NCBI GenBank assembly: GCA_963751275.1
Contig: CAVVTZ010000007.1
Location: forward strand, 916,006-980,005
DNA length: 64,000 nucleotides
Direction of reading: 5' to 3'
Source of the DNA: an uncultured Gemmatimonadaceae bacterium
GTDB lineage: Bacteria; Gemmatimonadota; Gemmatimonadetes; Gemmatimonadales; Gemmatimonadaceae
The notes beneath the pieces are model-generated. The model worked only from the letters and a program-made list of their open reading frames with translations, was not told the DNA's origin and made no database searches. Made by a program: the position numbers and the translations under genes. Numbering within the stretch: the stretch's first letter is position 1; each line of letters starts with the position of its first letter. Of this stretch, positions 15,424 through 56,511 are shown piece after piece.

Positions 15424-15546
15424 AACCAAACTGCTTTTGACAGGATGACAGGATAGGAGCAGGATTGACAGGATGACAGCCTCGCGCGAGGCTGTCATCC
15501 TGTCAATCCCGCTCCTATCCTGTCATCCTGTCAAAGCAGTTTGGTT
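15424..15546. repeat. Gene-less palindromic element (CAGGAT family, copy A)
   Basis: Arms of 62 and 61 bp, no spacer, one substitution and one extra T; ends AACCAAACTGCTTT(T)GACAGGAT. Confidence 0.97.
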
Positions 15547-15611
15547 TGAACTGTCAGAACTCTAGGGGAACTGGGCTACCCGAAGGGTCCTTTCCATGGG
15601 AGGAGGATGCC

Positions 15612-16367
15612 ATGACCCAACCGAATCTCGACCGCCGCCAGTTCGTGAAATTCGGAACGCTCACCGGCGCGGGTGCGCTGCTGTTCGGATGCCGGCCTTC
15701 GCCGGAGCCGTGCCCCGCGCCGCCGGCCGCCGCGCCGCGCAAAGTCGTGACGCTCACCAAGGAGTGGCAGCAGGCGCTTACGCCGGAGGAGATCGTGGAC
15801 TTGGCGAAGGCGGGCAACCAGCGTTTCGTTAACGATGAACGGCAGGATCGGGATTATCACCATGATGTCTCCGCCACCGCCGCCGGCCAGCATCCCGCGG
15901 CGGTGATCCTCAGTTGCATCGATTCACGCGCGCCCGCTGAGATCATCCTCGATGCCGGGATCGGCGACATGTTCAACGCGCGGATCGCGGGGAACTTCGT
16001 GGACCGCGATCTCGCGGGGAGCATGGAGTTCGCGTGCGCCGTGGCCGGTGCCAAGGTGGTGATGGTCATGGGCCACACGAGCTGCGGTGCGATCAAGGGC
16101 GCCATCGACGGCGCGAAGCTCGGGAACCTCACGGCGCTCCTCGAAAAGCTCACACCGGCCGTGAACGCGGTGAAGAACTTCAATGGCGAGCGCACGGCGA
16201 AGAACCCCGACTTCGTGAACGCCGTCGCCACCGAGAACGTGAAGCTCACCCTCGCCGAGATCCGGAAGATCAGCCCCGTGCTCGCGGGACTCGAGAAGGA
16301 CAAGAAGATCCTGATGGTCGGCGCGATGTACCACGTTGAGACGGGGGCGGTGGAATTCCTCGGCTAG
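15612..16367 (+). CDS. Beta-class carbonic anhydrase with Tat signal
   Basis: AGGAGG RBS; DRRQFVK twin-arginine motif; CIDSR and HTSCG zinc ligands. Confidence 0.93.
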   Translation: MTQPNLDRRQFVKFGTLTGAGALLFGCRPSPEPCPAPPAAAPRKVVTLTKEWQQALTPEEIVDLAKAGNQRFVNDERQDRDYHHDVSATAAGQHPAAVILSCIDSRAPAEIILDAGIGDMFNARIAGNFVDRDLAGSMEFACAVAGAKVVMVMGHTSCGAIKGAIDGAKLGNLTALLEKLTPAVNAVKNFNGERTAKNPDFVNAVATENVKLTLAEIRKISPVLAGLEKDKKILMVGAMYHVETGAVEFLG

Positions 16368-16372
16368 CCAGC

Positions 16373-17200
16373 TTGCCGCGCGGTGATACCGATGGGAGAT
16401 TCGCATCCATGCGCTTCCGGTGCCGGAACAGGGCGATCAGGTGCGGATGCAAGAGCTACCGCGCGGCCGTCGCCGTCGGGGCGCTGGCAGGCGCTGCGTG
16501 GCTCCCGGCGCAGACGCCGGACTCGCAGGCGCCGAAACCGGCCGCGCCGGCATTGATCTACACGCCGGGAACGATCCAGTATCCGCAGGCCATGAAGCCC
16601 TGGTCCCACAAGATGGCGGCGGGCGTGAGCCTCATCTCGATGCCCGCCGCCATCGCACAGTCCGGCAGCACGATCCGCTGGCCGCTGTTCGTCTATGAGT
16701 ACACGCTCGGGTTGCCGGCCCACTTCACGCTCGCCACGAGCTTCTCGACTGAGATCGTCACGAACCACATCGAGGCGATGCCACGCTGGCAGTTCGCCAT
16801 CAGTGACCGGCTGCACGGGGATGTCGGCCTTGGCGTCGCCTATTGGTTCGGCCAGCTGACGGTCAACCGGTTCGATCAGCACATCCACGGATGGATGGCC
16901 TATCCGTATGTCGGGATCGGTTACGACTGGGGCAAGCTCGCGCTCTCCTTCCAGGCGACGGGCACCCACGTCCTGTCGCTCGACACCAAGTCCGGCGACC
17001 TCACCGCGAACTACTCCACGGACTGGTACAGCGGCACGTCGTACCGGTTGATCCTCGAGCAGCCGATGTTCGGCCACACCACGCTCGGGTTCGCGCTGCA
17101 GGCGAGCCGCATCAAGTTCTACTACCCGCAGTGGCCGCTCTTCCCGACGTTCGACCGCTACTTCTGGATCCCCGAAGCACAGTTCTACTTCACGCTATGA
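16373..17200 (+). CDS. Hypothetical outer-membrane beta-barrel-like protein (start uncertain)
   Basis: Alternating aromatic strands; ends QFYFTL; overlaps the next gene start (ATGA). Confidence 0.6.
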   Translation: MPRGDTDGRFASMRFRCRNRAIRCGCKSYRAAVAVGALAGAAWLPAQTPDSQAPKPAAPALIYTPGTIQYPQAMKPWSHKMAAGVSLISMPAAIAQSGSTIRWPLFVYEYTLGLPAHFTLATSFSTEIVTNHIEAMPRWQFAISDRLHGDVGLGVAYWFGQLTVNRFDQHIHGWMAYPYVGIGYDWGKLALSFQATGTHVLSLDTKSGDLTANYSTDWYSGTSYRLILEQPMFGHTTLGFALQASRIKFYYPQWPLFPTFDRYFWIPEAQFYFTL

Positions 17201-25416: not shown

Positions 25417-25517
25417 CGGCAACGGCGTGTGTAGTCGTTGACGTGTAGCAACAGCTGACTGCAAAGGCGCGGGTGGTCGTTGCCACACGTCAACGACCAC
25501 ACGCGCCTCTGCCGTTA
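25414..25517. repeat. Intergenic inverted repeat (39-bp arms) between convergent genes
   Basis: 25414-25452 vs reverse complement of 25479-25517, 5 mismatches. Confidence 0.85.
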
Positions 25518-26063: not shown

Positions 26064-26537
26064 GTGACCGCGCCGAACGCGTCCGAACCGGCCAATGCTC
26101 CGCGCACCTACCGCGTCGCGGCAGGGTGGCGCGTGTTCCTCACGCTCGCGGGCCTCGCCTTCTCAATCGGGGGCCTTTTTTGCTCCTGGTTCGCGTGGAA
26201 CACTCATAGCGAGGAGGCCACGTTCTTCTGGCGGATCGTAGCCGCCGTGGGCTCTCTCGTTTGGGGCGTGGGAGTCGGCTTGTACGGCATCGTCGCCGCC
26301 TCGCGCAACCATCTCGTGCTCACCGCCGACCGGATCATCGTCTACCAATTGCTGTACGGCAGGCAGAGCCTGCGGCGGGACGAGATCGCAGGTCGTCGCC
26401 GGAAAATGCACTATACATTACTAGTTCCGACTCGGCCCGGTCTCGATGCGGTCAGGGTCGATTCGGGCTATGCGACCGACTCGGCGTTTGACGCATGGCT
26501 GGCGTCGATCCCGACTCTCGACGCAGCGAATTCCTAG
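26064..26537 (+). CDS. Hypothetical 2-TM membrane protein
   Basis: Two hydrophobic helices followed by a short soluble domain. Confidence 0.6.
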   Translation: MTAPNASEPANAPRTYRVAAGWRVFLTLAGLAFSIGGLFCSWFAWNTHSEEATFFWRIVAAVGSLVWGVGVGLYGIVAASRNHLVLTADRIIVYQLLYGRQSLRRDEIAGRRRKMHYTLLVPTRPGLDAVRVDSGYATDSAFDAWLASIPTLDAANS

Positions 26538-26556
26538 TCTCACACGGAGGTATCCA

Positions 26557-27103
26557 ATGCGCACCACACGAATGCTCGCCCTCGCGCTCCTCGCGTTCCC
26601 CATCATGGCGCCGGCCCGTCGCGCGCCCGCGCGGAGCGATGAACACGCGGAATGTTCTCAAGACCATTTCCGAGATGACCAAGAAGGATTCGGGGCTCAC
26701 CAAGTTCTTCAAGGGCTCGGCGGGCTATGCGGTATTCCCCACGATCGGCAAAGGCGCGATCGGCATCGGCGGCGCGCACGGCGATGGCGAGCTCATCGTC
26801 GGCGGAACGGCGCTCGGCGAGACCTCGATGACGCAGGTGACGATCGGCTTCCAGCTCGGCGGGCAGGCCTACTCCGAGATCATCTTCTTCGAGGACGCGA
26901 AGACGCTCGCCAATTTCCAGAAGGGCGACTTCGAGTTCGCCGCGCAGGTGAGCGCGGTCGCGCTGAAGGCGGGCGCGTCGGCGAACGCCAAGTACGCGAA
27001 CGGCGTCGCCGTGTTCACCATGGCGAAGGGCGGTCTCATGTACGAAGCGAGCGTGGGCGGACAGAAATTCGGGTACAAGCCCTTCAAGCCCGCGGAAAAA
27101 TGA
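26557..27103 (+). CDS. YSC84/SYLF-like lipid-binding protein, frameshifted
   Basis: GGAGG RBS and signal peptide; GYAVFPTIGKGAIGIGGAHGDG, GFQLGGQ, GGLMYEASVGGQKF. Confidence 0.85.
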
Positions 27104-27196
27104 TGCCCGGCGTCGTGGGATGACGCGCGCGGAGAACTGATGCCGTTGTAGTCCATCATGGCCATCATGTTCATCCTGTCCAGTTCTTGGCTTTAC

Positions 27197-27680
27197 AACA
27201 ACTGCTTTGACAGGATGAACATGATGGACATGGTGGGGGCTCCTCGAAATGACCTGCTCACCGAGAGAGTGATCGGGTTGGCAATGAAGGTGCATCGAGC
27301 GCTTGGACCGGGCTTCCTCGAGGCGGTGTATCGAAGGGCACTCCTCATTGAATTGAGAAACGCGGGCATTCCGGCCGAAGCAGAATGCCGGATCTCGGTG
27401 ATGTATGCAGGACTGCCCGTCGGTGAGTACGTCGCTGACATCACGGTGCAGTGCGCTGTAATCGTGGAATTGAAGGCTGTGGTTGCGCTGAGCACGGCGC
27501 ACGAGGTGCAGCTCGTACACTACCTAACCGCCACCGGCCTCGATGTGGGCCTCTTGCTCAACTTTGGCGCCGAGCGCCTGCAATTCAAACGAAAACATCG
27601 ATTGCCACGCGCCGCGACGATCTGAGCCTCACGCCGTTCCATCATGATCATCATGTTCATCATGTCAAGAGCAGTTGGTT
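27197..27680. mobile_element. Putative element: GxxExxY gene between inverted CAGGAT-family arms (copy B)
   Basis: Left arm 27197-27236 and right arm 27639-27680 are imperfect inverted repeats; extra outward arm at 27153-27180. Mobility is inferred. Confidence 0.6.
27215..27625 (+). CDS. GxxExxY protein (PD-(D/E)XK nuclease-like)
   Basis: LGPGFLEAVY, ADI..VELK, QLVHYL, GLLLNFG. Confidence 0.92.
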   Translation: MNMMDMVGAPRNDLLTERVIGLAMKVHRALGPGFLEAVYRRALLIELRNAGIPAEAECRISVMYAGLPVGEYVADITVQCAVIVELKAVVALSTAHEVQLVHYLTATGLDVGLLLNFGAERLQFKRKHRLPRAATI

Positions 27681-27738
27681 TGAACTCAACTGCACGACGA
27701 TGCTCGTCATGGTGCGAGCGGCGCCCACCAGGAGATAG

Positions 27739-30421
27739 ATGGCCGCTCCAATCATGACCGGTGGTCCGGCGGCCACGCGCCCGCGTGCTGCTGCCCCATC
27801 GAGCCAAGCGGACAGCGACGCCCTCCGGCGCATCGCCTGGTGCGATGCCACGGCGGCGCTCACGGCGCTCGACGCCAAGCGCGAGGGGCTGGACGAGGAA
27901 GAGGTCGAGCGCCGCCGCGAGCAGTTCGGCCGCAATGAGGTCGCGCACGAGAAGGCGCCCGCGTGGTACACGCAGCTGCGCCACGCCTTCGCGAATCCGT
28001 TCAACTTCCTGCTCAGCACCCTGGCCATCGCGTCCGGCGTCACCGGCGATCGCGAGGCCGTGGTGGTCATCGGGCTCATGGTGGCGCTGAGCGTCGGCCT
28101 TCGCTTCGCGCAGGAATTCCGCAGCAACAAGTCCGCCGAGGCGCTGCGGAAGCTCGTGAGCACCAGCACGGCGGTGGAGCGCAGTGACGACGAGTTCCAT
28201 CCCGGCAGCACGCCCGCCGCGCGCCGCCGCGAGATCCCGATGTCCGACCTCGTGCCGGGGGACATCGTCTATCTCTCCGCGGGCGACATGGTGCCCGCCG
28301 ACGTGCGCCTGATCGCGGCGAAGGACCTGTTCGTGAGCCAGAGTGCGCTCACCGGCGAGTCGCTTCCGGTGGAGAAGCTCGACCGCAGCGCGGCGCCGGA
28401 GAAGCCGGCGGCGCTCACCGAGATCCCGACCGTCTGCTTCATGGGCACGAGCGTGATCAGCGGCACCGCGACGGCCGTCGTCGCCACGACCGGCGCGCGC
28501 ACCGCGTTCGGCGCGATGGCGAAGGGGCTCGTCGGGCCAGCGCGTCACGACGGCGTTCGACGTGGGCGTGAGCAAGGTGAGCTGGCTCTTCATCCGGTTC
28601 ATCGTGGTGATGGTGCCGATCGTCTTCCTGCTCAACGGGCTGAACAAGCACGATTGGCTGGAGGCGTTCCTGTTCGGGCTCGCGGTGGCGGTGGGGCTCA
28701 CCCCCGAGATGCTGCCGATGATCGTGACGACGAACCTCGCGAAGGGCGCCGTCACGATGGCGAAGCACAAGACGATCGTGAAGCGGCTCAACGCCATCCA
28801 GAACTTCGGCGCGATGGATGTGCTGTGCACCGACAAGACGGGCACGCTCACGCAGGACAAGATCGTGCTCGAGCGGCACATCAACGTCGTGGGCGAGGAG
28901 GACGACGCGGTGCTCGCGCTCGCGTACCTGAACAGCTTCTACCAGACGGGGCTCAAGAATCTCCTGGACGTGGCGGTGCTGGAGCACGGCGAGATCAAGG
29001 CCGAGCTGGCGATCGACAAGTCCTACTCGAAGGTGGATGAGATCCCCTTCGACTTCACGCGCCGCCGGATGTCGGTGGTGGTGGAGCACGAGCATCAGAC
29101 GCAGCGCCTCATCTGCAAGGGCGCGGTGGAGGAGATGCTCCGCATCTGCCGGTCGGCGCACGATGAGGACCGGGTGACGGAGCTGAATGACGAGCGGCGC
29201 GAGGACGCGAAGGAGCTCGTGGATGGAGATGAGCGAGGACGGGTTCCGCGTGGTGGCCGTGGCGTACCGCGACTTCGCGCCGCGCACGGGTCCGTACACC
29301 GTGGCCGACGAGAGCGATCTCGTGCTGGCGGGGTTCATCGGCTTCCTCGATCCGCCCAAGGAGAGCGCCGCGCCGGCGATCAAGGCGCTCGCGCAGCACG
29401 GCGTGAGCGTGAAGATCCTCACCGGCGACAACGACCTCGTCTCGCGCAAGGTCTGCCAGGATGTGGGCCTCGAAGTCGGACACATCGTGCTCGGCAACGA
29501 GATCGACGGGACTCGACGACGAAGCAGCTCGGCGACGTGGCGTCGACAAAGGCACGGTGTTCGCGAAGCTGACGCCCGACGACAAGGTGCGCATCGTGCG
29601 CGCGCTGCGCGCGCGCGGCCACACCGTGGGCTTCATGGGCGATGGCATCAACGACGCCGGCGCGCTGCGCGAGTCCGACGTGGGCATCTCGGTGGATTCC
29701 GCGGTGGACATCGCCAAGGAATCCGCCGACATCATCCTGCTCGAGAAGAGCCTGATGGTGCTGGAGGAGGGCGTGCTCGAGGGGCGGAAGACGTTCGGCA
29801 ACACCATCAAGTACATCAAGATGACGGCGAGCTCGAACTTCGGGAACGTGTTCAGCGTGCTCATCGCGAGCGCGTTCCTGCCGTTCCTGCCGATGCTGCC
29901 GATCCAGCTCCTCACGGTGAATCTGCTCTACGATCTGTCGCAGACGTCCATCCCGTGGGACGACATGGACCCGGAGTATCTGACCGTGCCGCGGAAGTGG
30001 CGCGCCGACGACATCGGCCGGTTCATGATCTTCATCGGGCCGATCAGCTCGATCTTCGACGTGATCACCTTCGGCGTGATGTGGTACGTCTTCGCGCGCC
30101 AACGGCCCGGCCCACCAGTCGCTCTTCCAGTCGGGGTGGTTCATCGAGTCGCTGCTCACGCAGACGCTCATCGTGCACATGATCCGCACGGCGAAGGTGC
30201 CGTTCATCCAGAGCCGCGCGACGTGGCCGGTGCTCACGGTGACGGCGCTGACCATGGTGATGGGCATCGTGCTGCCCTTCACGCCGCTCGGGAAGAACCT
30301 CGGTCTCGAGGCGCTGCCGGCGAGCTATTTCCTCTGGCTCTTCGCGATCCTCTCGGGCTATTCCGCGCTCACGCAGGTGATGAAGGGCTGGTACATCCGG
30401 CGGTTCGGGACGTGGCTGTGA
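27739..30421 (+). CDS. mgtA: Magnesium-translocating P-type ATPase, several frameshifts
   Basis: [37 protein letters not shown] across frames. Confidence 0.92.
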
Positions 30422-30567
30422 GGGTGAACGGGCGTTGGTGCTGTTGAACGGTTCGAACACCGCATGCGGCGCTTGACTTCGCGACGGGTGAATGCTCAAA
30501 CTGGATAGCGTCGTTCGCTGCGGCGCGCAGCGCAGGCCCACTCGTCCGAGCTCAGCTCCGGGGGATC

Positions 30568-32073
30568 ATGCGGCTCTTTTCCATTGCCGGTGCGGTCTTG
30601 ACCGCCGCGTTCATCGCGGCCGGCACGGTATCGGCACCGGCCCAGGTGGCCACGAGAGCACCGGCGGTGCGGACGACGATGGCGCCCGCGCCGGCTGGAT
30701 TGCAGGCCTTCACTACACCATCGGTGTGCGCGCAGCACTCCGACGTGCCGAACTGCACCGGTGCGCTCGAGCACGGGCTCGTGCTCTTCACCTGGACGTG
30801 CGCGAACTGTGACCCGAACTGGCAGGCGCTGTTCGTCGTGAACGGGCAGCCGGGGGCGGTCTCGGATCTCACTCTCGCGCCTTCCAAGCACGCCGCGCTC
30901 AGTGTGCGCGCGAACCAGTTCAAGTCCGCCGATTGCGTGGCGGTGCGGATCTACAACCCGGCGCAGGCGGGGCAGCAGGCGACGAGCAATGCGGTGTGCC
31001 TGGCGCAGGTGATGGCGGCGCACGTCACGGTGGCGCCACCGGCGGCCAACGTGCGCGCGGCGCCCGCCGCCGGCGCCGCGGTCGCGACGGCGAAGGCGCC
31101 GGCGGCCGTGAGCGCCTCGTTCGTTCCCACGCCCAGCGGCATGGGCAGCACGCACGATCCGCACATGTGCGCGTCGCACGGCGGCACCGCGGGCAGTCTC
31201 GCCTGCTCGGCGGCGCTGCCAGCGGGCCAGCTCGCGCTCGTCTGGACCTGCCACGGATGCAAGGTGAGCGGCTACCGTCTGTATCGCGTGGACAACGGCC
31301 AGCACACGCTGCTCCCGGCGAACGGCGCGTACGCCAGCGATGCCACGATCACGCTCGCGCTGCTCGAGCCGCCGGGCGACGGATTCAATGGGAAGTGCTG
31401 GGCGGTGGCGGCGTACAACGGCTCGAATGAATCGACGCTGAGTAACAGCTGGTGCGCCGGCGCCGGGAGCACGATCTCATCGATGACGCTGCAGCCGGGG
31501 CACGCGCTGCACTGGCAGCATTATCGTCCCTCGCGCACCGGAGTGATCGGCCACACGGACAAGCCGATCGATACGTACGACGCGACGATCTACGTGGGCT
31601 ACGCGGATCACTATTGGAACAACGAGTTCGGCGATTCCTACGATGACTACATCCACCGGTCGGGCGTGTACTTCGATCTCTCGCCGCTGGCCGGGAAGAC
31701 CGTGAGCAAAGCGGTGCTGCAATTCAACGCGTTCTCGTCATGGCACGACTACGACAATACGTCGGGGGATGCTCCGAACCTGACGGCGCAGAGCACGGAG
31801 GCGTGCGTCGCCAGGATCTACAAGGCCACGGATCACTGGTGGGAGAACAACGACCTCGCCTCGAAGGTCTCGTACAGTGCGCCCGGGAATTACAACGGGC
31901 CGACGTTCGGCATCGACGTGACCTCCGCGATCGCCGGCTGGCTCAAGAACCCATCGACGAACTTCGGATTCATCCTGGCGGGTTCCGACGAGAATGACAC
32001 GTGGCACGGCAACCGGAACAACGTGTGTCTCACGCAGCTGGAGTCGGTGGCGCTGGTGGTGAGCTACCACTGA
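30568..32073 (+). CDS. Secreted Cys-rich repeat protein
   Basis: Signal peptide; two copies of C..H..C..AL..WTCxxC; aromatic-rich C-terminal beta domain. Confidence 0.7.
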   Translation: MRLFSIAGAVLTAAFIAAGTVSAPAQVATRAPAVRTTMAPAPAGLQAFTTPSVCAQHSDVPNCTGALEHGLVLFTWTCANCDPNWQALFVVNGQPGAVSDLTLAPSKHAALSVRANQFKSADCVAVRIYNPAQAGQQATSNAVCLAQVMAAHVTVAPPAANVRAAPAAGAAVATAKAPAAVSASFVPTPSGMGSTHDPHMCASHGGTAGSLACSAALPAGQLALVWTCHGCKVSGYRLYRVDNGQHTLLPANGAYASDATITLALLEPPGDGFNGKCWAVAAYNGSNESTLSNSWCAGAGSTISSMTLQPGHALHWQHYRPSRTGVIGHTDKPIDTYDATIYVGYADHYWNNEFGDSYDDYIHRSGVYFDLSPLAGKTVSKAVLQFNAFSSWHDYDNTSGDAPNLTAQSTEACVARIYKATDHWWENNDLASKVSYSAPGNYNGPTFGIDVTSAIAGWLKNPSTNFGFILAGSDENDTWHGNRNNVCLTQLESVALVVSYH

Positions 32074-32112
32074 AACTGATAGACGTTGGACGTTAGACGT
32101 TAGAACAGACAG

Positions 32113-32145
32113 GACGCCCCGCTCGAGACACTCGAGCGGGGCGTC
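32113..32145. terminator. Perfect 15-bp stem-loop, probable terminator
   Basis: gacgccccgctcgag-aca-ctcgagcggggcgtc. Confidence 0.7.
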
Positions 32146-32263
32146 GGCGTCACGATCCTGGCATCCGGCCCGGCCCCTCTTGCCAATTCGTTAGACGATT
32201 CTCACATTACTGGCCCGACGCTCGATCCTGCCCGAGAAGTCCCTACACCAAGAAGAGGTAGCT

Positions 32264-33976
32264 ATGAGACTTCGACCACAAACACTCGCCGTCCTCGCTG
32301 CGGGGGCGCTCGCAACGGCGCTCGTTCCATGGTCTTCGCTCGGTGCACAGGCGAAGACGAGCAAGCCGAACATCATGTTCATCATGGGCGATGACATTGG
32401 CTGGATGCAGGTCGGGCTGTACCACGAAGGGTTGGCACTCGGCGAAACGCCGAACATTGACCGCATCGGCCGCGAGGGTGCGAAGTTCACGACCTACTAC
32501 GCGGAGCAGAGTTGCACCTCGGGCCGCAACGCCTTCTTCACGGGCATGCATCCGTTGCGCACCGGAATGATCCCGCCGCAGCTGCCGGGCAGCCCATCGT
32601 ACCTGCGTCCCGGTACGCCGGCGATCGCGAAGTTCCTGCACGACCTGGGCTACACCACCGGTGAGTTCGGCAAGAATCACTTGGGCGACCACACCGCCGC
32701 TTTGCCCACGGCCCACGGCTTCCAGGAATTCTTCGGCTATCTGTACCATTTGGACGCCATGGAGCAGGTCAGCTTCCCCGACATCAACAAGACGCCTCTC
32801 CTGCAGGGCTTCGCGCCACCGTGCAAGAACACGCCGATCAAGGGAATGGCCGATGTCCCCGGCGCAGTGGACCCGATGACCACGACCTGTCTGACGCCGC
32901 CGCGGCCGATGATGCTCTGCACGTCGTCCGATGGCACCGAGGCCAATCAGACGTGCAAGGATGAGGGCCCGCTCACGTTGGAGCGCTCGCGCGGTGTGGA
33001 CGAGGAGATCTCGGCTCACGTGATCGATTTCCTCGATCGCAACGATCCGAAGAAGACCGGCAAACCGTTCTTCGTCTGGTACAATCCCGCGCGCATGCAC
33101 ATCACCACCATGCTGTCGCCGAAATACCTGGCGATGGTCGGCGAGCAGGGCGGCAAGGATTGGGGGATCAACGAGGCCGGCATGAAGCAGATGGACGACA
33201 ACATTGGCCTCGTCATCAAGAAGCTCGAGGAGATGGGCCAGCTCGATAACACGATCCTGGCATTCACAACCGACAATGGCGCCGAGACGCAGACGTTCCC
33301 CGACGGTGGGACCACGCCATTCAAGGGGCAGAAGCTGACCACGTGGGAAGGCGGCATGCGCGTGCCTATGGTGGTGCGGTGGCCCGGGCACATCAAGCCT
33401 GGCACGCTCTTGACCGAGATGTTCGCTTCGCTCGACTGGCTGCCGACTCTCGTCGACATCGCTGGCGGTCCCAAGGGCGACGCATTGAACAAGCAGATCC
33501 AGGCCGGCCAGTATCCGGGCATCGTGAAGACCATGCTCGACGGCGTGGACCAGACCGACTATCTGCTCGGGAAGTCGGATACTTCGATGCGCAACACGTT
33601 CTTCTACTACGCCGACGCGACACCCTCGGCGGTGCGCTTCAAGAATTGGAAGTTCTACTATACGATGGCCGGTTCGACGGGCGCCGCCGCGCTCGATCCG
33701 CCGGTGACGTTCCACTGGACCCAGATCGATAACATTCGGCGCGACCCGTTCGAGCAGGCCGTTGGGGATGGGCAGAAGTCCATTCTCTCGTACGGCGGTG
33801 CGCTCGCGTCACCCACCACGGCGTATCTCTACGACTGGAACCTGCTTCCGGTGGGGCAGCTGCTGTGGCTGAAGGAGCTCGAATCGTATAAGAAGTTCCC
33901 GCCGCTGCAGGCGCCGGAGACGTACAATCTCGATGGCATTCTCAAGGCCATGCAGGACGTACACCAAAGCAACTAG
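32264..33976 (+). CDS. Sulfatase (Cys-type)
   Basis: PNIMFIMGDD, CTSGR, FGKNHLG, TDNG, WEGGMRVP. Confidence 0.92.
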   Translation: MRLRPQTLAVLAAGALATALVPWSSLGAQAKTSKPNIMFIMGDDIGWMQVGLYHEGLALGETPNIDRIGREGAKFTTYYAEQSCTSGRNAFFTGMHPLRTGMIPPQLPGSPSYLRPGTPAIAKFLHDLGYTTGEFGKNHLGDHTAALPTAHGFQEFFGYLYHLDAMEQVSFPDINKTPLLQGFAPPCKNTPIKGMADVPGAVDPMTTTCLTPPRPMMLCTSSDGTEANQTCKDEGPLTLERSRGVDEEISAHVIDFLDRNDPKKTGKPFFVWYNPARMHITTMLSPKYLAMVGEQGGKDWGINEAGMKQMDDNIGLVIKKLEEMGQLDNTILAFTTDNGAETQTFPDGGTTPFKGQKLTTWEGGMRVPMVVRWPGHIKPGTLLTEMFASLDWLPTLVDIAGGPKGDALNKQIQAGQYPGIVKTMLDGVDQTDYLLGKSDTSMRNTFFYYADATPSAVRFKNWKFYYTMAGSTGAAALDPPVTFHWTQIDNIRRDPFEQAVGDGQKSILSYGGALASPTTAYLYDWNLLPVGQLLWLKELESYKKFPPLQAPETYNLDGILKAMQDVHQSN

Positions 33977-34003
33977 CTGGCCGCGTGCGGATCGAGTATC
34001 ACG

Positions 34004-34036
34004 GCGGGCGGTCCCTGCGGGGGCCGCCCGTTTCGC
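34004..34036 (+). terminator. Probable intrinsic terminator
   Basis: gcgggcggtccc-tgcg-ggggccgcccgttt. Confidence 0.6.
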
Positions 34037-34183
34037 CTCATGCAGAGATCGTGGTGCGCACGGAGACGTGCGCACTCTCCCCTCTTGCGCCGAGCGGCGA
34101 ACTTTTCCACTCGTGGTCGTATTCGATCAGCAGGTTGTTGCCCCCCGCAGGATCAGCTACCGCACCTACAACGAGGACAGCGC

Positions 34184-35871
34184 GATGATAAGCTTTGGAT
34201 GGCGAAGGAGCGGCGTCCGCTACGCCGCCGCGACGGCGGCTCTCATGCTTGCCGTGCCGCTGGTGATCCAGGCGCAGGCGTCGGCCAAGAAACCGAATAT
34301 CGTCATGCTGATGACCGACGATACCGGTTGGGGCGACTGGGGCTACATTCGGGCGGCGGCGCCGCGCTCGGCCACCCCACGCCGAACATCGACCGCGTGG
34401 CGAAGGAAGGCACCTACTTCACGAACTGGTATGGCCAGGCGAGCTGCACCGCGGGGCGCGCGTCGTTCATCACGGGCCGCATCCCCATTCGCTCGGCGCT
34501 CTCGATCGTGGTGGCGCCGGGCGATGAGAACGGGTTGCACAAGGAGACGCCCACCATCGCCGAGTTCTTCAAGAAGAACGGCTATCAGACCTACTTCTCG
34601 GGGAAGTGGCACCTGGGTGACAAGCCGGAATTCTATCCCATCGAGCACGGCTTCGATGAGATGCGGAACTTCGCGGCGTATTACCCGGGCGTGTACACGT
34701 ACAGCGATACGTCGCCGCGGATGCACCCGTGGTTCCCGCGGTACAATCCGGAATTCTGGAAGATGTACCAGGACGCGGTGAACCTGCACGAATGGTCGGG
34801 CGTGGCCGGCAAGCCCGCGGTGCAAGGGCGAACTGATCACGTGGGATGCGCTCGGCGGAGTTCGATGTGCGCCAGACGGCCTCGGCCGTCGCGTACATCA
34901 AGGAGCACGCCAAGGACGCGAAGCCGTTCTTCATGGACGTCAACTTCATGAAGATGCACAACCCGAACAACCCGGCCAAGGAATTCGCCGGCAAGACGCA
35001 CCTCGGCAATTACTCGGACGCGATGCTCGAGCTCGATTCCAACATTGGCAAGATCATGGATGCGATCCGCGCCGAGGCGCCGAACACGATCGTGATCATC
35101 ACGGCCGACAACGGGGCGTGGCAGGATGCCTATCCGGACGCCGGCACCGTGCCCTTCCGCGGCGAGAAGGGGACCGCCTTCGAAGGCGGCTGGCGCGTGC
35201 CGGGCATCATGTGGTCGCCCGGGCGGATCCCGGCCGGCCAGCACCTGGATGAGATGATGTCGCACATGGATGTGTGGCCGACGACGGCCGCGATGGTGGG
35301 GCTCAAGCCGCCGCCAACGGGGGAGTGGACCGACAACGCCGGCAAGCCCATCTACTTCGATGGCATCGACAACAGCGCCTACGTCACCGGCAAGGCCATG
35401 CACTCGGCGCGCGATGGGTGGATCTACATCGACGGCGAGAATTTCCTGGGCATGCGCGCCGACATCGGCGGCGATCCCAACGAGCCGTGGCTGCGCATCG
35501 CCTGGAAGTATCTGTATACCGCGAAGGACACGTGGCTCGGCCCCGACCAGAACCTCGGTTCCATTGGCGCGACGTACAACCTGACCATGGATCCCTACGA
35601 GAAGTATTCCATGACGTTCAATGGCGCGGTCGCCTCGCGCATGCCGGGCGAATCGCCGGGCAAGTACGCGGGTGAGGACAACGGGTGGGTGCTCGCGCTC
35701 CTGTATCCCGTGCTGGTGAATTTCGACTTGTCCATCATGAAGTATCCGAACATCCAGCGCGTGCCGGGCGGCGCCTCGAACGATCTCGTGCCGAACCTGA
35801 AGATGCCATCGAATCCGGTGCCATTGCTCGATCCGAAGAAGCCGGTGAAGGCCATTCCAGCGATCGATTGA
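34184..35871 (+). CDS. Sulfatase (Cys-type), two frameshifts
   Basis: KPNIVMLMTDD, CTAGR, GKWHLG, ADNG, FEGGWRVP in three frames. Confidence 0.88.
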
Positions 35872-35892
35872 ACGAAGTCGAGGTGATGTGAA

Positions 35893-35923
35893 GCGGGCGG
35901 TCCGAGAGGGCCGCCCGTTTCGC
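35893..35923 (+). terminator. Probable intrinsic terminator
   Basis: gcgggcggtcc-gaga-gggccgcccgttt; near-copy of 34004-34036. Confidence 0.6.
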
Positions 35924-36010: not shown

Positions 36011-36536
36011 AACTGAACTGCTTTGACAGGATTATCAGGATGGACGGGATTGACGGGATGACTGCACCCCGAGCGCCGCTAGACGATCCGGTGACGGAGC
36101 GCGTGATCGGGCTCGCAATGAAAGTCCATCGAGTGCTGGGACCCGGATTCCTGGAGTCCGTTTACCGAAGAGCGCTCTTGGTTGAACTGCGAACGGCCGG
36201 CGTCGCGGCCGAAGAGGGCAGGCGGATCAGCGTCGCATACAGCGGCGTCTCAGTGGGCGAGTTCATCGCCGACATCATCGTCGGCGAAAGAGTGGTCGTT
36301 GAGTTGAAAGCCGTCGAAGCGCTCCACAGTGCACACGAATTTCAGATAGTGAACTATCTGACCGCGACGGGCATCGACGTGGGCCTCTTATTCAACTTCG
36401 GCAGTGCGCAGTTGCAGTTCAAACGAAAATATCGCCGTGGCCGAGCGAACCAAGGCGCCCGGGAACGGCGAGAACGACTCGGACCATCATCCTGACAATC
36501 CCGTTCATCCCGTGAATCCTGTCAAAGCAGTTCGTT
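36011..36536. mobile_element. Putative element: GxxExxY gene between inverted CAGGAT-family arms (copy C)
   Basis: Left arm 36011-36061 and right arm 36487-36536 both carry exact AACTGCTTTGACAGGAT. Mobility is inferred. Confidence 0.62.
36040..36495 (+). CDS. GxxExxY protein (PD-(D/E)XK nuclease-like)
   Basis: LGPGFLESVY, ADI..VELK, QIVNYL, GLLFNFG. Confidence 0.92.
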   Translation: MDGIDGMTAPRAPLDDPVTERVIGLAMKVHRVLGPGFLESVYRRALLVELRTAGVAAEEGRRISVAYSGVSVGEFIADIIVGERVVVELKAVEALHSAHEFQIVNYLTATGIDVGLLFNFGSAQLQFKRKYRRGRANQGARERRERLGPSS

Positions 36537-36612
36537 CAGGATGCCAGGATGACCAGGATGCTGAGGCTGCGCACGAGTTCGTGAACGAGCATGTGTGCCT
36601 GCACTCGCAAGT

Positions 36613-37654
36613 CTACGGCGTGAGCTCCGTCATGTGGAGCGTCGCCTTCAGGATCTTCATCACCACCGCCATCCCATTCTCCCCATTGGTGAAGATCACG
36701 ATGCCGCGCTTCGACGCGGGCAGAAGGAGTACGATCGTCTTGATCCCCTCATCCGATCCGGTGTGCATCAGGATCACGGGATCCTCGGCAGGGCCCTTCA
36801 TCACTTCCCAGCCGAGTCCCATCGCTTCGGTGGTGCTGTGCTCGAACCAGACCTGCGGCGTGGTCATGTCGGCGTAGACCGCGGGCGAGAGGCCGGCGCC
36901 GTTCAGCACGTTCGCCGCGAAGCGCGCGTAGTCGCCGATGGTGGTCACGAGCCAGTCGGCGGCGTTCGGGCGTGACATGGGATGCATCGACGTGTACACG
37001 ATCGCACCCGTCGTGTCGTGCCCGTACGCGAACAGCGACGAATCGTGGCGCGGGTCCCAGCCGTACGTGGTGTTCGTCATGCCGAGCGGTGCGAAGAGGA
37101 TCGAGTCGGAAAGCCGCTGGAGCGACTCGCCGAACTTGTGCTCGAGGGCATGACGCAGGTATTCGAAACCTTCGCCCGAATATTTGTACTTGGTGCCGGG
37201 CGGAAAGAGGAAGACGAGCTTCCCCGACGCCGACGCGCCGCGCCAATTCGGGAATCCGGTCTGATGGCTGAGGATGACGCGCGGCGTGAGCTTCGCCGCC
37301 CACGGATCGCCCGCGAGGTCGGGATCCACCCAGTCGGCCGCGAGCGAGCCGTCGAGCTCCAACCGGCCCGCGCTCACGAGGCGCAGCGTCGTCACGGCGA
37401 CCACCGGCTTCGTGAGCGACGCGACGTTCCAAAGGGCACTCGTGTCGAGCGACACGCCCGGCTCGGAGCTCGCCGAAGGTCTCGACCGTCCGGATGCGGC
37501 CGTTCTCGACGATACCGATCGCCACGCCGGGCACGTGACTCTCGCGCATCCAGGCCGGCATGTTGTAATGAAAGGTCAGCGGGATCGACGTCTGCGCCTG
37601 GCCCGCGCTCGACAGGAGCAATGCGAGCGCTACGCCTAATCGTTGCAGCTTCAT
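36613..37654 (-). CDS. Serine hydrolase, beta-lactamase family, frameshifted
   Basis: VPGVAIG, ASLTK (SxxK), LSHQTG, YSGEG, HTG. Confidence 0.85.
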
Positions 37655-37835
37655 GGGCCGGGCCTCCATCGCGGGGGTCGGGGTCGGATACCCTACGGCA
37701 AGGAGCCGCGCGAGTGACAAGCGGCGCACTCGAGGCGGACGGACTGTTACGCGGCCCGCTCTATCCAAGCGGTTAAGAAACGGCTAATGTCTGCCGCCAT
37801 CACGACGGTTCGCCATCCCGAAAGGAGCGTTGCAA

Positions 37836-40523
37836 ATGGAACATGTTCGCGCGTGGATCCCTCGCATCACGATCGGCGCCACGGCGCTCTTCGTCACCGT
37901 TGCCGCCGCCGCCCCGCTCGCGGCGCAGGTCGTCACCGGCACGCTCGGTGCGCCGAGTGCCACGACCACCGTGAAGGGCGACCAGCTCCCCGCGCCGCCG
38001 ATGAAGTTCGGCGGCAAGATCGCCGATGCGGCTTCGGCGAGCACGCCGTGGTGGCCGCCGCGCATCGTGCCGCCGGCGAAGGCGCCGAACATCCTGCTCA
38101 TCATGACGGACGACCAGGGCTACGGCGTCCCCGGCACGTTCGGCGGCGTGATCCCCACGCCGGCGCTCGACCGGATAGCGAAGAACGGGCTGCGCTACAC
38201 GGAATTCCATTCCACCGCGCTCTGCTCGCCCACGCGCGCCGCGCTCATCACCGGGCGCAATCACCATTCCGTGGGCTTCGGCGTCATCGGCGAACTGTCC
38301 ACCGGTTTCCCCGGTTACAACTCCGTGATCGGTCCGGAGAACGCCACCATCGGGCGCATCCTCAAGGACAACGGCTACGCGACCTCGTGGTTCGGCAAGA
38401 ATCACAACACGCCCGGCTTCCAGTATAGCAGCACAGCCGGCCCGTTCGATCAATGGCCGTCGGGGATGGGCTTCCAGTATTTCTACGGCTTCATGGGCGG
38501 CGAGACGGACCAGTGGGAGCCGTATCTCTTCCGCGACCACACGCAGATCTATCCGTGGATCGGGCGCGAAGGCGAGTACAATCTCACCACCGACATGGCG
38601 GACGAGGCGATCAAGTACATGCGCGACCTGAACGCGGCCGCGCCCGACAAGCCCTTCTTCCTCTATTACGTGCCCGGTGGCAGTCACTCGCCGCACCAGC
38701 CCAAGCAGGAATGGATCGACAAGTTCAAGGGCAAGTTCGACATGGGCTTCGAGAAGATGCGCGATTCGATCTTCGCGAATCAGAAGAAGCTCGGCGTGAT
38801 CCCGGCGAACACGATGCTCACGCCGTGGCCGGCGGACCTGCCGCACTGGGATACGCTGTCCGAGGTGCAGAAGAAATTGTTCGAGCGGCAAGCCGAGGTG
38901 TTCGCCGGATACGTGGCGTATACCGACAATGAGATCGGCCGCGTGATCCAGGAGGTGCAGGATCTCGGCAAGCTCGACAACACGATCATCATCTACATCG
39001 ACGGCGACAACGGCACGAGCCCCGAGGGCGCGATCGAGGGCACGTTCAACCAGCTCACGGCGTACAACGGCGTGATCGGCTTCCCGCACGAGGAAGCGGT
39101 GCAGTTCGCGCACATCGACCAGTGGGGCGGCCCGAAGACGTATCCGCACATGTCGGCGGCGTGGGCGTGGGCCTTCGACACGCCCTTCAAGTACACGAAG
39201 CAGGTGGCGTCGCACTTCGGCGGCACGCGCCAAGGGCTCGCGATCTCGTGGCCCGGCCACATCACCGACGTCGGCGGCATCCGCTCGCAGTTCCACCATG
39301 TGATCGACATCGTGCCCACACTGCTCGAGATCACGGGGATACCGGCGCCGACGACGGTCGATGGGATCAAGCAGCGCCCGATCGAGGGGATCAGCATGGC
39401 GTACACCTTCGACAAGGCGAACGCCAACGCGCCCTCGAAGCGCAGCACGCAGTACTTCGAGATGGTCGGCAACCGCGCGATCTACCACGACGGCTGGATC
39501 GCCGCGACGCACCCGCCGCTCCCACCCTGGGCGATGGGCGTGGGCACGATGCCGAACATCATGACCGGCTACAAGTGGGAGCTGTACAACATCGCCGACG
39601 ACTACTCCGAGTACAACGATCTGGCCGACAAGTTTCCGGCGAAGCTCAAGGAGCTGCAGGCGCTCTTCCTCAAGGAGGCCGGCAAGTATCAGGTGTTCCC
39701 GCTCGACAATTCCGGATTCGTGCGGCTGCTCACGGAGCGGCCGAGCGCGATCGCGGGCCGCAATGAATTCACCTACACCGGCGTGAACCTCGGCATTCCG
39801 ATGGGCAGTGCGCCGAGCATCCTGAACAAGGACTACACGATCACCGCGGATGTGACGATCCCGAGCGGAGGGGCGGAGGGCATGCTCGTGACGCTCGGCG
39901 GGCGCTTCGGCGGCTACGCGCTGTACCTGAGCCGCAGCTTCAACTGGTGGTTCCACGAGGCGTTCTTCCGGCGGCTCGCGCTCATCGTTCTCGTCGCCGG
40001 GCTGTTCTTCATGTGGCTGGCGGCGCGCGGGAAGTGGGGGAAGGCCGGCACGTTCTTCGGCAACGCGCTCGCGGTGGCGGGGGGCGGCGGCTGGCTGCTC
40101 ATCGCGATCGTGGGCCTGCTGCATTTGGGGGCGGGGAAGCCGACGTTCGTCTACAACTTCCTGGACCTGCAGCGCACGAAGTGGACCGGGCCGGCGCTCG
40201 GCGCCGGCAAGCACACCGTCACGTTCGACTTCAAGTACGACGGCCCCGGCCCGGCCAAGGGCGGCACCGGCATCCTGAGCGTGGATGGCAAGGAAGTGGA
40301 CCGCAAGACGATGGAGCACACCATCCCGCTGCTGATGGCGATCGATGAGACATTCGACATCGGCGCCGACACGCGCACGGGCGTGGACGATTTCGAGTAC
40401 GCGGTGCCCTTCGCCTTCACCGGCACGATCGACACGCTCAAGATGAAACTCGGCCCGTCGCAGATCTCGATGCCCGAGAAGGCGGCGGCGCAGCGCGCGG
40501 TGCAGGACAAGGTGAACAACTGA
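37836..40523 (+). CDS. Arylsulfatase (Cys-type) with a hydrophobic insert near the C-terminus
   Basis: AAGGAG RBS; CSPTRAALITG; intact ORF. Confidence 0.93.
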   Translation: MEHVRAWIPRITIGATALFVTVAAAAPLAAQVVTGTLGAPSATTTVKGDQLPAPPMKFGGKIADAASASTPWWPPRIVPPAKAPNILLIMTDDQGYGVPGTFGGVIPTPALDRIAKNGLRYTEFHSTALCSPTRAALITGRNHHSVGFGVIGELSTGFPGYNSVIGPENATIGRILKDNGYATSWFGKNHNTPGFQYSSTAGPFDQWPSGMGFQYFYGFMGGETDQWEPYLFRDHTQIYPWIGREGEYNLTTDMADEAIKYMRDLNAAAPDKPFFLYYVPGGSHSPHQPKQEWIDKFKGKFDMGFEKMRDSIFANQKKLGVIPANTMLTPWPADLPHWDTLSEVQKKLFERQAEVFAGYVAYTDNEIGRVIQEVQDLGKLDNTIIIYIDGDNGTSPEGAIEGTFNQLTAYNGVIGFPHEEAVQFAHIDQWGGPKTYPHMSAAWAWAFDTPFKYTKQVASHFGGTRQGLAISWPGHITDVGGIRSQFHHVIDIVPTLLEITGIPAPTTVDGIKQRPIEGISMAYTFDKANANAPSKRSTQYFEMVGNRAIYHDGWIAATHPPLPPWAMGVGTMPNIMTGYKWELYNIADDYSEYNDLADKFPAKLKELQALFLKEAGKYQVFPLDNSGFVRLLTERPSAIAGRNEFTYTGVNLGIPMGSAPSILNKDYTITADVTIPSGGAEGMLVTLGGRFGGYALYLSRSFNWWFHEAFFRRLALIVLVAGLFFMWLAARGKWGKAGTFFGNALAVAGGGGWLLIAIVGLLHLGAGKPTFVYNFLDLQRTKWTGPALGAGKHTVTFDFKYDGPGPAKGGTGILSVDGKEVDRKTMEHTIPLLMAIDETFDIGADTRTGVDDFEYAVPFAFTGTIDTLKMKLGPSQISMPEKAAAQRAVQDKVNN

Positions 40524-40525: not shown

Positions 40526-40632
40526 TGCAGGGGCGCGTCTGGCAACTGAGCGTGTAGATAAAGCTGGGGGCCGGCGCGAACGCGCCGGCCCCCATGTCGT
40601 ATCCATACGCTCCGTTGCTAAGCGCGCCTGCT
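40526..40632. terminator. Extended hairpin between convergent genes
   Basis: Inner stem gggggccggcgcg-aa-cgcgccggccccc plus an imperfect outer stem. Confidence 0.6.
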
Positions 40633-41729: not shown

Positions 41730-42077
41730 GGGGCGTGAGGCGCACCCCCCAACGCCGTGAGACGAAACCCGAACGCCGTGAGGCGCGAGGCGCACCCCGA
41801 ATCCCGTGAGGCGTGAGGCGCACCCCGAATCCCGTGAGGCGTGAGGCGTGCGACGAAAGGACCGTACGGCGTGAGGCGCGACCCGAACTCCGTGAGGCGC
41901 GAGCGCACTCACGGCGTTCGGGGTTACGCCTCACGCCGTATCATCAGTTCGCTGCACGCCTCACGCCTCACGGTGTTTCGGGGTGCGCCTCACGCCGTGC
42001 AGTCAGTTCGCCGCACGCCTCACGCCTCACGGAGTTCGGGTTACGGCGAACGTTGTCAGGGTTTCCACTCACGCCCC
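41730..42077. repeat. Inverted array of CGTGAGG heptamers
   Basis: About 10 CGTGAGG-like units, then about 8 CCTCACG-like units, centre near 41901; includes a 28-bp tandem duplication. Confidence 0.9.
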
Positions 42078-53704: not shown

Positions 53705-53812
53705 AACGGCCGGGAACCGATGACCGGGAACCGATGAGGCATGACCATGCATGGCATCAACGGCATGTATGGTCATGCCTCATCGGTTCCCGGTCATCGG
53801 TTCCCGGCTGTT
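53705..53812. repeat. Palindrome with 49-bp arms containing tandem CCGGGAACCGATGA
   Basis: 53705-53753 vs reverse complement of 53764-53812, 2 mismatches, 10-nt loop. Confidence 0.95.
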
Positions 53813-53834
53813 GGCAGTGATGCGGCTCGCGGAA

Positions 53835-56283
53835 CTATTGCGCGCGTAAAGCGACGCCCGGTTCGATGCGCGCCGCGCGGATCGCCGGAATCCAGCACGC
53901 GGCGATCCCCACGAGGGCCATGAGCACCGCCACCGCGCCGAGCGTCACGGGATCGTGCGGCGCGACGCCGAAGAGGAGTCCCGTCATGAGACGGGCGAGC
54001 GAGAGCGATCCGGCGACGCCGATCGCGAGGCCGGCGATCACGAGCAGGCCGCCTTCCGAAAGGATCATCCGTTGCACTCTGCCGGAATCGGCGCCCAGGC
54101 TCATCCGGATGCCGATCTCGTTCGTGCGCGCGCTCACCGAGAAGATGAGTACGGCGCCGATGCCGATCGTCGCGAGGACGAGCGCGAGGACGCCGAACGA
54201 TGCCACGAGCACGGCGTTGAGCCGGCGCGGCGCGACGCTCTCATCGCGGATCTGGTCGATCGTCATCACGTGCTCGATCGGCTGGTCGGGCGCGAGGCCG
54301 CGCACGATGCGCGTCGCGGCGGGGCCGACGGCGGCGGCGTCGCCCTTCGCGCGGATCACGAGGCCTCCGGAGGGGAAATCGCTCTGGGCGAACGGGATGA
54401 ACACCACCGGCAGTGCCGCCGCATCGAGCCCGCCATCCTTCGTATTGCCGACCACGCCCACCACGGTGCGCCAGTCGCCGGAAATGCCGACGAACTTGAG
54501 CACGTCGCCCGTCCAGGCGATGCGGCGGCCCACGGCATCCTGCCCGGGGAAGAGCAGGTTCGCGAGCGTCTTGTTGATCACCACCACCATCGGCGACGCG
54601 GGCACGGGGCCGTCGTTCGCCGTGAACTCACGCCCCGCGATGAGCGGAATGCCGGCCGCCTTGAAGTAATCGGGATTCGCGGTGCGGTACTCCGACTGCG
54701 GCGCCGGCTCGCCCGGCGGCACCTCGTGCCCCTCGCCCTTCACGTCGAGCAGGAAGCCCGCCGCGCGCAGCGGCATCGTCGATCCGATCCCGACCTGTGT
54801 GACGCCCGGCAGCGCCGCGAGCTGGCTCTGCATCTGCTCGTAGCGCGCGACCACGGCGCTCTTGTCCTTGTAGTTGAAATCGTGCGGCACTTCCATCGTG
54901 AGCACGTGCCCGGCGTCGAGGCCATTGTCCACGCGCTGCAGCTGCAGCATCGTGCGCGTGAGCAGCCCCGCGCCGGTGAGCAGGATCACGGAGACGGCGA
55001 TCTGCGCGACCACCAGCGACTGTTGCAGCCGCTGGCGCCGCACGCCGCCGCTGGCGCGCTTGCCGCCCTGCGCCAGCGCGGCGCCCAGGCCGTTCTCGCG
55101 CGCGAGCGTGGGCGCGTACGACAACAGCACCGCCACGAACACCGCGAGCAGGAAGGCGAAGCCGAGCACCATGCCGTCCACGCGGATCTCGCCCGCGCGC
55201 GGGCTGTAGCGCTGCGCGAAGCGCGATCAGCATCTGCACGCCGGCGAAGGCGATCACCAGCCCGAGCGCCGCGCCGATCAGCGCCAGCAGGAGATTCTCG
55301 GCCAGCAGCAGCCGGCGCAGCCGCTTCGTGCCGGCGCCGAGCGCCGCGCGCACCACGAGCTCGTGCTCGCGCCGCACGCCGCGCATGAGCGTGAGATTCG
55401 CGACGTTCGCGCAGGCGATCACGAGCACGAACGCGGCCGCGCCCATCAGCAGCCAGAGCGTGAGCCGCGCCTTCTCGCCGAGGATTTCGTGAAACGGGGT
55501 GAGCGTCACTCGATAGTTGGAGGCGGGATCGTACGCCTCGGGATAGTCGGCGTGCACGCGCTTCGTGATGTCGCGCACTTCCGCGCGCGCCTGCTCCACC
55601 GTGGCGCCCGGCGCGAGGCGCGCGATCATCTGCGTCATGCGGTGCGTGCGCCCCTGGATCATGGTGGCGCTCAGGTGATGCTCGCTGTTCACCATGTTCA
55701 TGAGCGCATCGATGCGCACGGGGAAGTACGGCGCGGGCTGCAGCACGCCGACGACCATCACCGGCTTGCCGCCGATGTTCAACGTTCTCCCCGACGATGG
55801 AACTGTCGCCGCCGAAGTGCTGCATCCAGTACGCGTACGTGAACATCACCACCGGCGCCGCGCCGCGGCCGTCATCGCGGCTGTCGAACGGGCGGCCGAG
55901 CACCGGCGCGAGTCCCATCACGGTGAAGTAATTCCCGGTCACGAGGCCGACGTCGAGCTCACCGCATCGTGGTCGCTCTGGAGCGTGAGCGTGAAGGGCG
56001 AGTACTCGGCGATCCCGCCGAGCGTCTTGGAGGCCTCGCGGAAGTCGTTGATCTCGGGCACGGAGAAGGCGACGTCCTCGCGGCCGGGGCCGTCGGCGCT
56101 CTGGCGCAGGTACATCAGGCGGTCGCCGTCGCGGTTGGGCAGCGGGCGCAGCATCACGCCGCGCACCACGCTGAAGATCGCCGTGTTCGCGCCAATGCCG
56201 AGGCCGAGCGTGAGGACGACGGCGAAGGTGAAGCCGCGCGCGTTGAGCAGGCTGCGGGCCGCGAATTTGAGGTCGTTCAGCAT
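53835..56283 (-). CDS. Duplicated orphan ABC permease, frameshifted
   Basis: DLKFAARSL..GIGANTAIFS, IACANVANL, RTNEIGIRMSLGA in successive frames. Confidence 0.88.
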
Positions 56284-56382
56284 TCGTGATACCCAGCGAG
56301 GGGGGAGCGCCGAGGGATGATCCTAAGCAAAATCGCGTTTCGCTCGTGATTGTCAACGGGGCGCATTGGCCGATCGAACCAG

Positions 56383-56511
56383 AACAAACTGCTTTGACAG
56401 GATTACAGGATGAACAGGATTGACAGGATGACTGCCGCGCAACGGATACCGTTGTGCGGCAGTCATCCTGTCAATCCTGTTCATCCTGTAATCCTGTCAA
56501 AGCAGTTTGTT
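56383..56511. repeat. Gene-less palindromic element (CAGGAT family, copy D)
   Basis: 63-bp arms, one mismatch, ATA loop; four ACAGGAT units per arm. Confidence 0.97.

Follow-up and report, generated by a model that had tools for sequence, protein, structure and literature searches.

Genomic context and architecture

The window analysed here is a 64,000-nucleotide stretch from an uncultured Gemmatimonadaceae bacterium (GenBank assembly GCA_963751275.1, contig CAVVTZ010000007.1, positions 916,006 to 980,005 of the forward strand), in which four loci, all between protein genes, carry the same inverted ends and two enclose a single gene of the GxxExxY family (Table 1). The genome to which it belongs (G000; 3.1 Mb, 83 % complete) was compared with congeners that include G002, G004 and G005 and whose assemblies are 63–89 % complete. 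A first-pass annotation, made from the letters of the window, had proposed that these loci form a mobile system spread by the GxxExxY protein. The four loci were recovered where it had placed them, as were exact copies of a 17-mer end sequence in six of eight arms (starting at 15525, 27200, 36016, 36516, 56387 and 56491), for which 0.03 matches are expected in shuffled sequence; the two inexact arms carry an extra T (15429) or two changes (27664–27680). The two gene-less loci do form near-perfect hairpins (folding z of −21 and −24), and both enclosed open reading frames (ORFs) exceed the cut-offs of PF13366 and TIGR04256. The neighbouring genes are unrelated, as had been stated, but the arms do not lie wholly outside genes: the start codons at 27215 and at 36040 or 36058 fall within the left arms, so that arms and genes overlap, and the arm units supply both the AGGA and the ATG of the gene starts. 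Rfam gives no match in the window.

An arm consists of the core GACAGGAT and two to three further units of 8–9 nt, and is built of tandem direct units rather than of short palindromes. Two arms combine into a gene-less hairpin (inward), a junction (outward) or a bracket round a GxxExxY gene. Two subtypes were distinguished, subtype 1 resembling the arms of gene 1 (CATGAT units) and subtype 2 those of gene 2 (CAGGAT units); two classings agree for 121 of 138 arms.

Table 1. Elements and related features (window positions, unless a G000 locus is named)
Feature	Position	Strand
Gene-less inward hairpin, subtype 2 (gene-2-like CAGGAT units)	15424–15546	none
Extra arm upstream of gene 1, missed by the first-pass annotation; outward pair with gene 1 left arm	27152–27180	−
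Gene 1 left arm, subtype 1 (CATGAT units), in-frame ATGs inside	27196–27235	+
GxxExxY gene 1 (PF13366/TIGR04256), catalytic E, D and ExK intact	27215–27625	+
Gene 1 right arm, subtype 1	27634–27680	−
Gene 2 left arm, subtype 2, start codon(s) inside	36012–36058	+
GxxExxY gene 2, predicted PD-(D/E)XK fold, E39/D78/E88/K90 conserved	36040–36495	+
Gene 2 right arm, subtype 2	36490–36536	−
Degenerate outward-facing units past gene 2 right arm, gap about 11, missed by the first-pass annotation	36537–36564	+
Gene-less inward hairpin, subtype 2, perfect stem	56383–56512	none
Further palindromes in the window	25424–25507; 40527–40631; 41730–42077; 53705–53812; 62878–63282	
PF05635 genes of G000	L244:1130–1507; L245:1018–1401; L246; L247:1013–1435 and 3540–4022; L248:1033–1515	

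A genome-wide family of paired arms

G000 contains 162 arms in 78 clusters, comprising 37 inward pairs, 32 outward (tail-to-tail) pairs, which had been overlooked in the first annotation, and nine other arrangements. Only two of the 78 clusters bear a gene, in both cases an intact GxxExxY gene. In the inward doublets the cores lie 71–121 bp apart, and the stems of the gene-less hairpins are near-perfect over 50–60 bp. Arm identity amounts to 97 % within inward elements (17 of 37 are perfect over 36 nt) and 82 % within outward pairs, as against 75 % between inward elements; the excess of within-element over between-element identity suggests that one arm has been copied onto the other.

Many otherwise perfect inward hairpins (e.g. 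15429–15445) mismatch at a T run outside the core, with three T facing four or a changed base, possibly a copy boundary or a cut site. At C9:228770–228890 the palindrome runs 30 nt past the core into a flank with no resemblance to other arms, which would fit fold-back copying of host DNA. Tandem arrays of up to four elements also occur (C2:51720–52262, C6:36697–36948 and C14:58851–59073 in G000, L235:2240–3330 in G168), the array in G168 holding four outward junctions with 250–330 bp of another palindromic repeat between them.

With respect to location, 26 of the 37 inward copies have a stop codon within 35 nt, and 13 of the 37 occupy convergent junctions, compared with 277 of 2436 junctions overall (based on gene calls from a purpose-made codon model); 10 of the 69 paired clusters stand between divergent genes. 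The absence of a target-site duplication, already remarked for the window, extends to the 37 inward elements, whose longest flanking direct repeats average 4.3 nt as against 4.1 nt in shuffled pairs, a value matched in 22 of 200 shuffles.

Spacing of outward pairs

The core-to-core gaps of outward pairs fall into classes near 11, 25 and 35 bp. In G005 they measure 10–13 (six pairs), 23–27 (seven) or 32–39 bp (ten) with none between, one value being hand-corrected for an inner unit, and a period of this strength is reached in 0.3 % of uniform draws. In G000, 26 of 32 gaps lie at 32–39 bp and five at 25–28 bp, and in other organisms 17 of 19 hand-curated gaps of up to 39 bp fit the same windows (P=0.005). 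The outward pair upstream of gene 1 has a gap of 28 bp in G000, 35 bp in G005 and 34 bp in G002. Such classes suggest that a protein bridges the paired arms on duplex DNA, although deletion through the palindromic outer motif could account for the shortest class. The possibility that outward pairs are the middle part of tandem inward copies was considered and rejected, as core gaps in the tandem arrays are about 60–85 bp rather than 25–39 bp.

Coupling of gene and arm subtype among congeners

The 17-mer is present in three of five congeners and in none of 35 other relatives. Gene 1 is syntenic among the congeners, being intact in G005, frameshifted in G002 and absent from this locus, together with a 2.2-kb block, in G004, and subtype-1 matches (74 in G000, 69 in G005, 78 in G002 and 36 in G004) are fewest where it is missing. 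No orthologue of gene 2 was found in the five congeners, at the completeness given above, and subtype-2 matches number 39 in G000 as compared with one each in G002, G004 and G005, at one common site. Comparison of these assemblies shows gene and arm subtype to be coupled, with gene 2 and subtype 2 almost confined to G000. Of the subtype-2 inward copies, which include both gene-less loci of the window, 13 of 19 are perfect, vs 2 of 11 of subtype 1 (P=0.02), and subtype-2 inward copies accordingly look younger.

The genes adjoining the elements are shuffled among congeners (14387–15376 and 26495–36495 compared with L042–L044). The PALP gene adjoins gene 1 in G002 and G005 and lies 12 kb away from it in G000, with an element at its 5′ end each time. 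Downstream of gene 1, a P-type ATPase match (27739–29040 and 29187–30182) stops at 433 amino acids, which is short for the family, and this gene may be split.

Turnover of copies

Both flanks could be resolved in G005 for 31 of the 78 clusters, the G005 regions having been partly picked for arms and therefore biased towards shared sites. Ten of these sites keep the same geometry and five are flipped between inward and outward, so that the family is retained at 15 of 31 sites between genomes about 85 % alike; 12 are empty, three hold another palindrome family and one holds other DNA. The polymorphism anticipated in the first-pass annotation is therefore found, with the element absent from the congener at 16 sites. 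At least six subtype-2-like copies of G000 occupy G005 subtype-1 sites (P=2e-5 when all junctions serve as the reference, 0.02 with 600 permissive junctions), and five of six G005 family sites that lack the family in G000 hold another palindrome, vs a background of 16 % (P=6e-4). As to the window, the flanks of 15424–15546 are rearranged in G005, where the corresponding end of the PALP gene carries a subtype-1 pair facing outward; at the junction matching 56383–56512, G005 lacks an arm and has unrelated sequence of about 1 kb.

Between G002 and G004, which are about 95 % alike, 11 of 12 sites were resolved; eight are shared and three carry other sequence, namely one full palindrome of another family and two weak remnants. 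Two shared sites change gap class (10 vs 34, by a clean 24-bp indel, and 25 vs 9), and one has an extra outward copy in G002 within a tandem insertion, with a 19-bp duplication of the gene end. A cleanly empty allele was not seen among the 11 sites, and exact insertion ends cannot be read from these or from the more diverged G005; four DNA sequencing runs covering 34200–38600 gave short contigs, none of which bridges gene 2, and hence no empty allele. The comparisons show copies being gained, lost and rewritten in place, and the replaced, flipped and re-subtyped sites argue for overwriting in place, at favoured junctions, as a principal mode of turnover.

The GxxExxY proteins and their arms in other organisms

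The window proteins score 133 bits against TIGR04256 (cut-off 35) and 129–130 bits against PF13366 (cut-off 22). In 83 aligned sequences E26, D65 and K77 are invariant and E75 is nearly so (numbering from 36079). The predicted model (pLDDT 89) resembles restriction-nuclease-like folds, with a best Z of 8.7 and a root-mean-square deviation of 3.6 Å over 100 residues, and matches the Hjc resolvase at Z 6.1. By fold and catalytic residues both products are predicted PD-(D/E)XK nucleases. The dN/dS ratio is about 0.09 when gene 1 is compared with its orthologue in G005 and 0.14 when the two paralogues are compared, dS being near saturation, and by this measure both genes are under purifying selection. 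Searches of the Protein Data Bank by sequence and of viral contigs returned no (in the former, no significant) relative, and a promoter scan round gene 2 gave nothing. The family is large (3815 relatives in one search); in the available part of one source PF13366 is entered under ‘Unknown’ function and described as having undergone multiple transfers (PMC3424549), and the available part of the myRT preprint mentions the family name once, beside a reverse transcriptase.

G000 has three GxxExxY genes, two of them in the window within family arms. The third (C12:51958–52600) lies just 3′ of a palindrome of CGCGGAT units whose ends likewise begin AAC(T/G)GCTT, and its product groups in the protein tree with proteins bearing CGCGGAT arms. 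In G168, duplicated and broken GxxExxY copies stand in tandem within about 700 bp (L242, L243).

The suspected enrichment of arms beside GxxExxY genes holds well beyond the window. From 157 loci, 25 with short flanks or partial genes were excluded, and inverted arms flank the gene at 106 of the remaining 132, vs 0 of 90 control flank pairs; the inward and outward labels of this survey cannot be relied on for GAAT-type units and were disregarded. A tree was built from 92 of these proteins, including 22 randomly drawn metagenome rows. In it the two window proteins form a group with one protein from G005 and one labelled Alcaligenaceae (100/98), inside a clade (99/97) of 39 rows, mostly Verrucomicrobiota and metagenome proteins; 37 of the 39 carry ACAG(G/A)AT arms. 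The remaining host-phylum proteins fall elsewhere, with other arm units, and the arm label changes 22 times on the tree vs 53 when shuffled. On this protein tree, arm type is seen to follow the protein across phyla and not the host.

The repeats are likewise multiplied elsewhere. Further arm matches, up to 57, occur in 8 of 10 genomes behind the surveyed loci. Among 121 genomes of another class a close gene was found in 9 of 13 with at least five arm matches vs 15 of 108 others (P=6e-4 with two pre-selected genomes left out), and among 150 other genomes of the host phylum the gene is present in 3 of 3 repeat-rich genomes vs 51 of 147 of the rest (P=0.045, the unpublished G084 making up one count). 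Several Verrucomicrobiota copies appear to lie between putative gyrB and gyrA or nuoE and nuoF genes. The distribution suggests that the gene itself moves rarely and together with its arms, including between phyla.

A model for the spread of the repeats and its alternatives

Taken together, the observations may be explained by a selfish, REPIN-like repeat system that is copied by cut and repair through the action of its own PD-(D/E)XK nuclease, a model to which we give about even chances. The GxxExxY protein would bind its own arm type and cut at or near paired arms, whereupon host repair would copy an arm by fold-back synthesis, yielding perfect inward palindromes, or alternatively from another copy. 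Elements would spread chiefly by replacing hairpins that already occupy permissive junctions between genes, with occasional entry into empty ones. Such a mode resembles cut-and-repair homing more closely than transposition of the DDE or HUH kind.

Several observations weigh against this model. Homologue sampling was query-biased, and arm labels were set by hand after the data had been seen. Kin are not independent, so that the P values for the gene–repeat association are overstated; in 4 of the 13 repeat-rich genomes from the other class no close gene turned up. The insertion of gene 1 is old and has been inherited vertically, and G002 retains 78 subtype-1 matches despite the frameshift. The single subtype-2 site common to all four congeners leaves gain and loss unpolarised, and the subtype-2 pattern was derived from empty copies and is inexact on the arms of gene 2 itself. 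When one gap per locus group is taken from other organisms, 10 of 12 fit the spacing windows (P=0.08), and the best period is 12–12.5 bp, better than 10.5 bp. Since G000 is incomplete, another mobiliser may be unassembled. Finally, all six PF05635 four-helix-bundle genes of G000 are bracketed by inverted arms of other palindrome families, just as the GxxExxY genes are (the four-helix identity was confirmed for five of them, and a similar ORF at L249 scored with no family). PF05635 proteins are not known to have a nuclease fold; the design therefore needs no nuclease, and either a mobiliser is shared or different proteins have reached the same end.

About a dozen further long-palindrome families exist in G000, where a long inverted repeat is present in 351 of the 1808 intergenic gaps scored. 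One shared mobiliser, or host recombination acting on hairpins, might move all of them, with GxxExxY and four-helix genes as family-specific passengers or adaptors. The number of families, their common architecture, their replacement of each other at the same junctions and the persistence of repeats in G002 where the gene is broken would all be accommodated. We nevertheless consider this unlikely. No candidate enzyme emerged among the families searched in G000, since Y1 transposases (PF01797), IS110 transposases and reverse transcriptases were not found at 83 % completeness (DDE families were not searched), and a passenger role leaves unexplained both the expansion of subtype 2 only in the genome with gene 2 and the retained catalytic residues. 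Three tyrosine recombinases, untyped, are encoded in G000, none of them in the window. One tyrosine recombinase gene (C7:590468–591151) ends just before a family hairpin that is shared with G005, probably by chance.

A route through RNA appears improbable. The elements would then resemble the intervening sequences of 23S rRNA but reside in mRNA, RNase III excising the stem from operon transcripts and the encoded protein binding or processing repeat RNA and possibly spreading it. The long near-perfect stems, the proximity of inward copies to stop codons and the start signals provided by the units would suit such a role, as would the four-helix proteins, which weakly resemble Avd and belong to the family of rRNA intervening sequences in the accessible text of PMC4990558. 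However, the 32 outward pairs with quantised loop lengths are needless for an RNA stem, clusters also stand between divergent genes, and no reverse transcriptase was found in G000. Least probable of all are host-selected terminator or mRNA-stabilizing hairpins homogenized by gene conversion, with the nuclease genes as unrelated residents whose flanks were converted: retention of the family at half of the resolved sites and the preference for convergent junctions would fit, but this explanation appears already largely contradicted by the control flanks and the protein tree, in which arm type follows the protein, and the family occurs in three of five congeners and none of 35 other relatives.

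The nuclease-driven repeat system may itself be one case of a wider phenomenon, which we put forward only tentatively. Such mobile DNA would form a class with no relation to the DDE, HUH, serine, tyrosine or DEDD enzymes. Every GxxExxY clade would recognize its own tandem-unit arm in duplex DNA, with pairing that depends on spacing, and would cut the paired arms and overwrite any hairpin present at a gene junction. Many palindrome families, some with four-helix-bundle partners, would thus compete for the same junctions of a genome.

Relation to known systems

The closest parallel is offered by REPIN–RAYT systems, which, in the sections of the sources available, comprise many extragenic copies of an inverted doublet about 100 bp long with a variable spacer, and a low-copy enzyme gene flanked by its own repeat group, with one repeat group per gene and mostly vertical persistence (PMC3116915; 10.1101/2021.07.10.451892). 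RAYTs, however, are IS200-like Y1 (HUH) tyrosine transposases, whereas here the protein belongs to PF13366 and PF01797 has no match in G000. REPs are short palindromes, in contrast to the tandem-unit arms described above, and in the present family outward pairs are as common as inward ones and gene and arms cross phyla. The likeness to insertion sequences and their miniature derivatives (IS/MITE) drawn in the first-pass annotation stands as regards gene-bearing and gene-less copies with the same terminal inverted repeats; it is incomplete, as nearly half of the copies face outward, hairpins are replaced in place and non-nuclease genes occur in the same architecture. In addition, the ORFs contain no transposase domain (only PF13366/TIGR04256), no family-wide target duplication is found, and copies differ in their core and are rewritten in place.

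Homing enzymes of the PD-(D/E)XK type exist. As the accessible portion of one account describes them, homing endonucleases share with the present system a small nuclease, a cut-and-repair spread (here proposed) and cycles of gain, decay and loss (10.1101/2024.02.27.582315). Unlike them, the present elements involve no intron or intein and no single conserved target, and have many gene-less copies at unrelated junctions. The ORF-bearing 23S rRNA intervening sequences (S23p) similarly carry a small ORF in the loop of a long stem and, as far as the available text goes, the same four-helix family as sister elements of G000 (PMC4990558), but the elements studied here lie between protein genes and have tandem-unit arms and outward junctions. 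The Hjc resolvase, DUF820/Uma2-like proteins and Cas4 share the PD-(D/E)XK fold, which leaves the substrate unspecified, and GxxExxY lacks a solved relative by sequence.

Integron attC cores read RYYYAAC...GTTRRRY and come with a linked integron integrase. The element ends also read AAC...GTT but lack the RYYY and RRRY context, and the three untyped tyrosine recombinases of G000 lie outside the window. An integron cassette reading gains no clear support from these features.

No paper in the literature searched links repeats with GxxExxY or PF13366; the searches did not extend to most subscription journals or to supplements, where a description may exist. The accessible parts of PMC3733652 and of a preprint on rRNA insertions do not cover a GxxExxY repeat system. 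The joint gain and loss of arm variants and genes across related genomes points to an undescribed kind of selfish DNA, to which the analysis of G000 adds subtype coupling, overwriting and spacing classes.

Significance

The orphan family GxxExxY thereby gains a defined and testable candidate substrate, and the presence of two paralogues and two arm subtypes in one genome provides built-in specificity controls. If GxxExxY proteins do mobilize these repeats, a REPIN-like system would have arisen a second time, independently and with a new chemistry, and some of the long intergenic palindromes present in about one-fifth of the scored gaps in G000 would be explained. A nuclease of 135 residues with clade-specific repeat recognition would also be useful as a tool.

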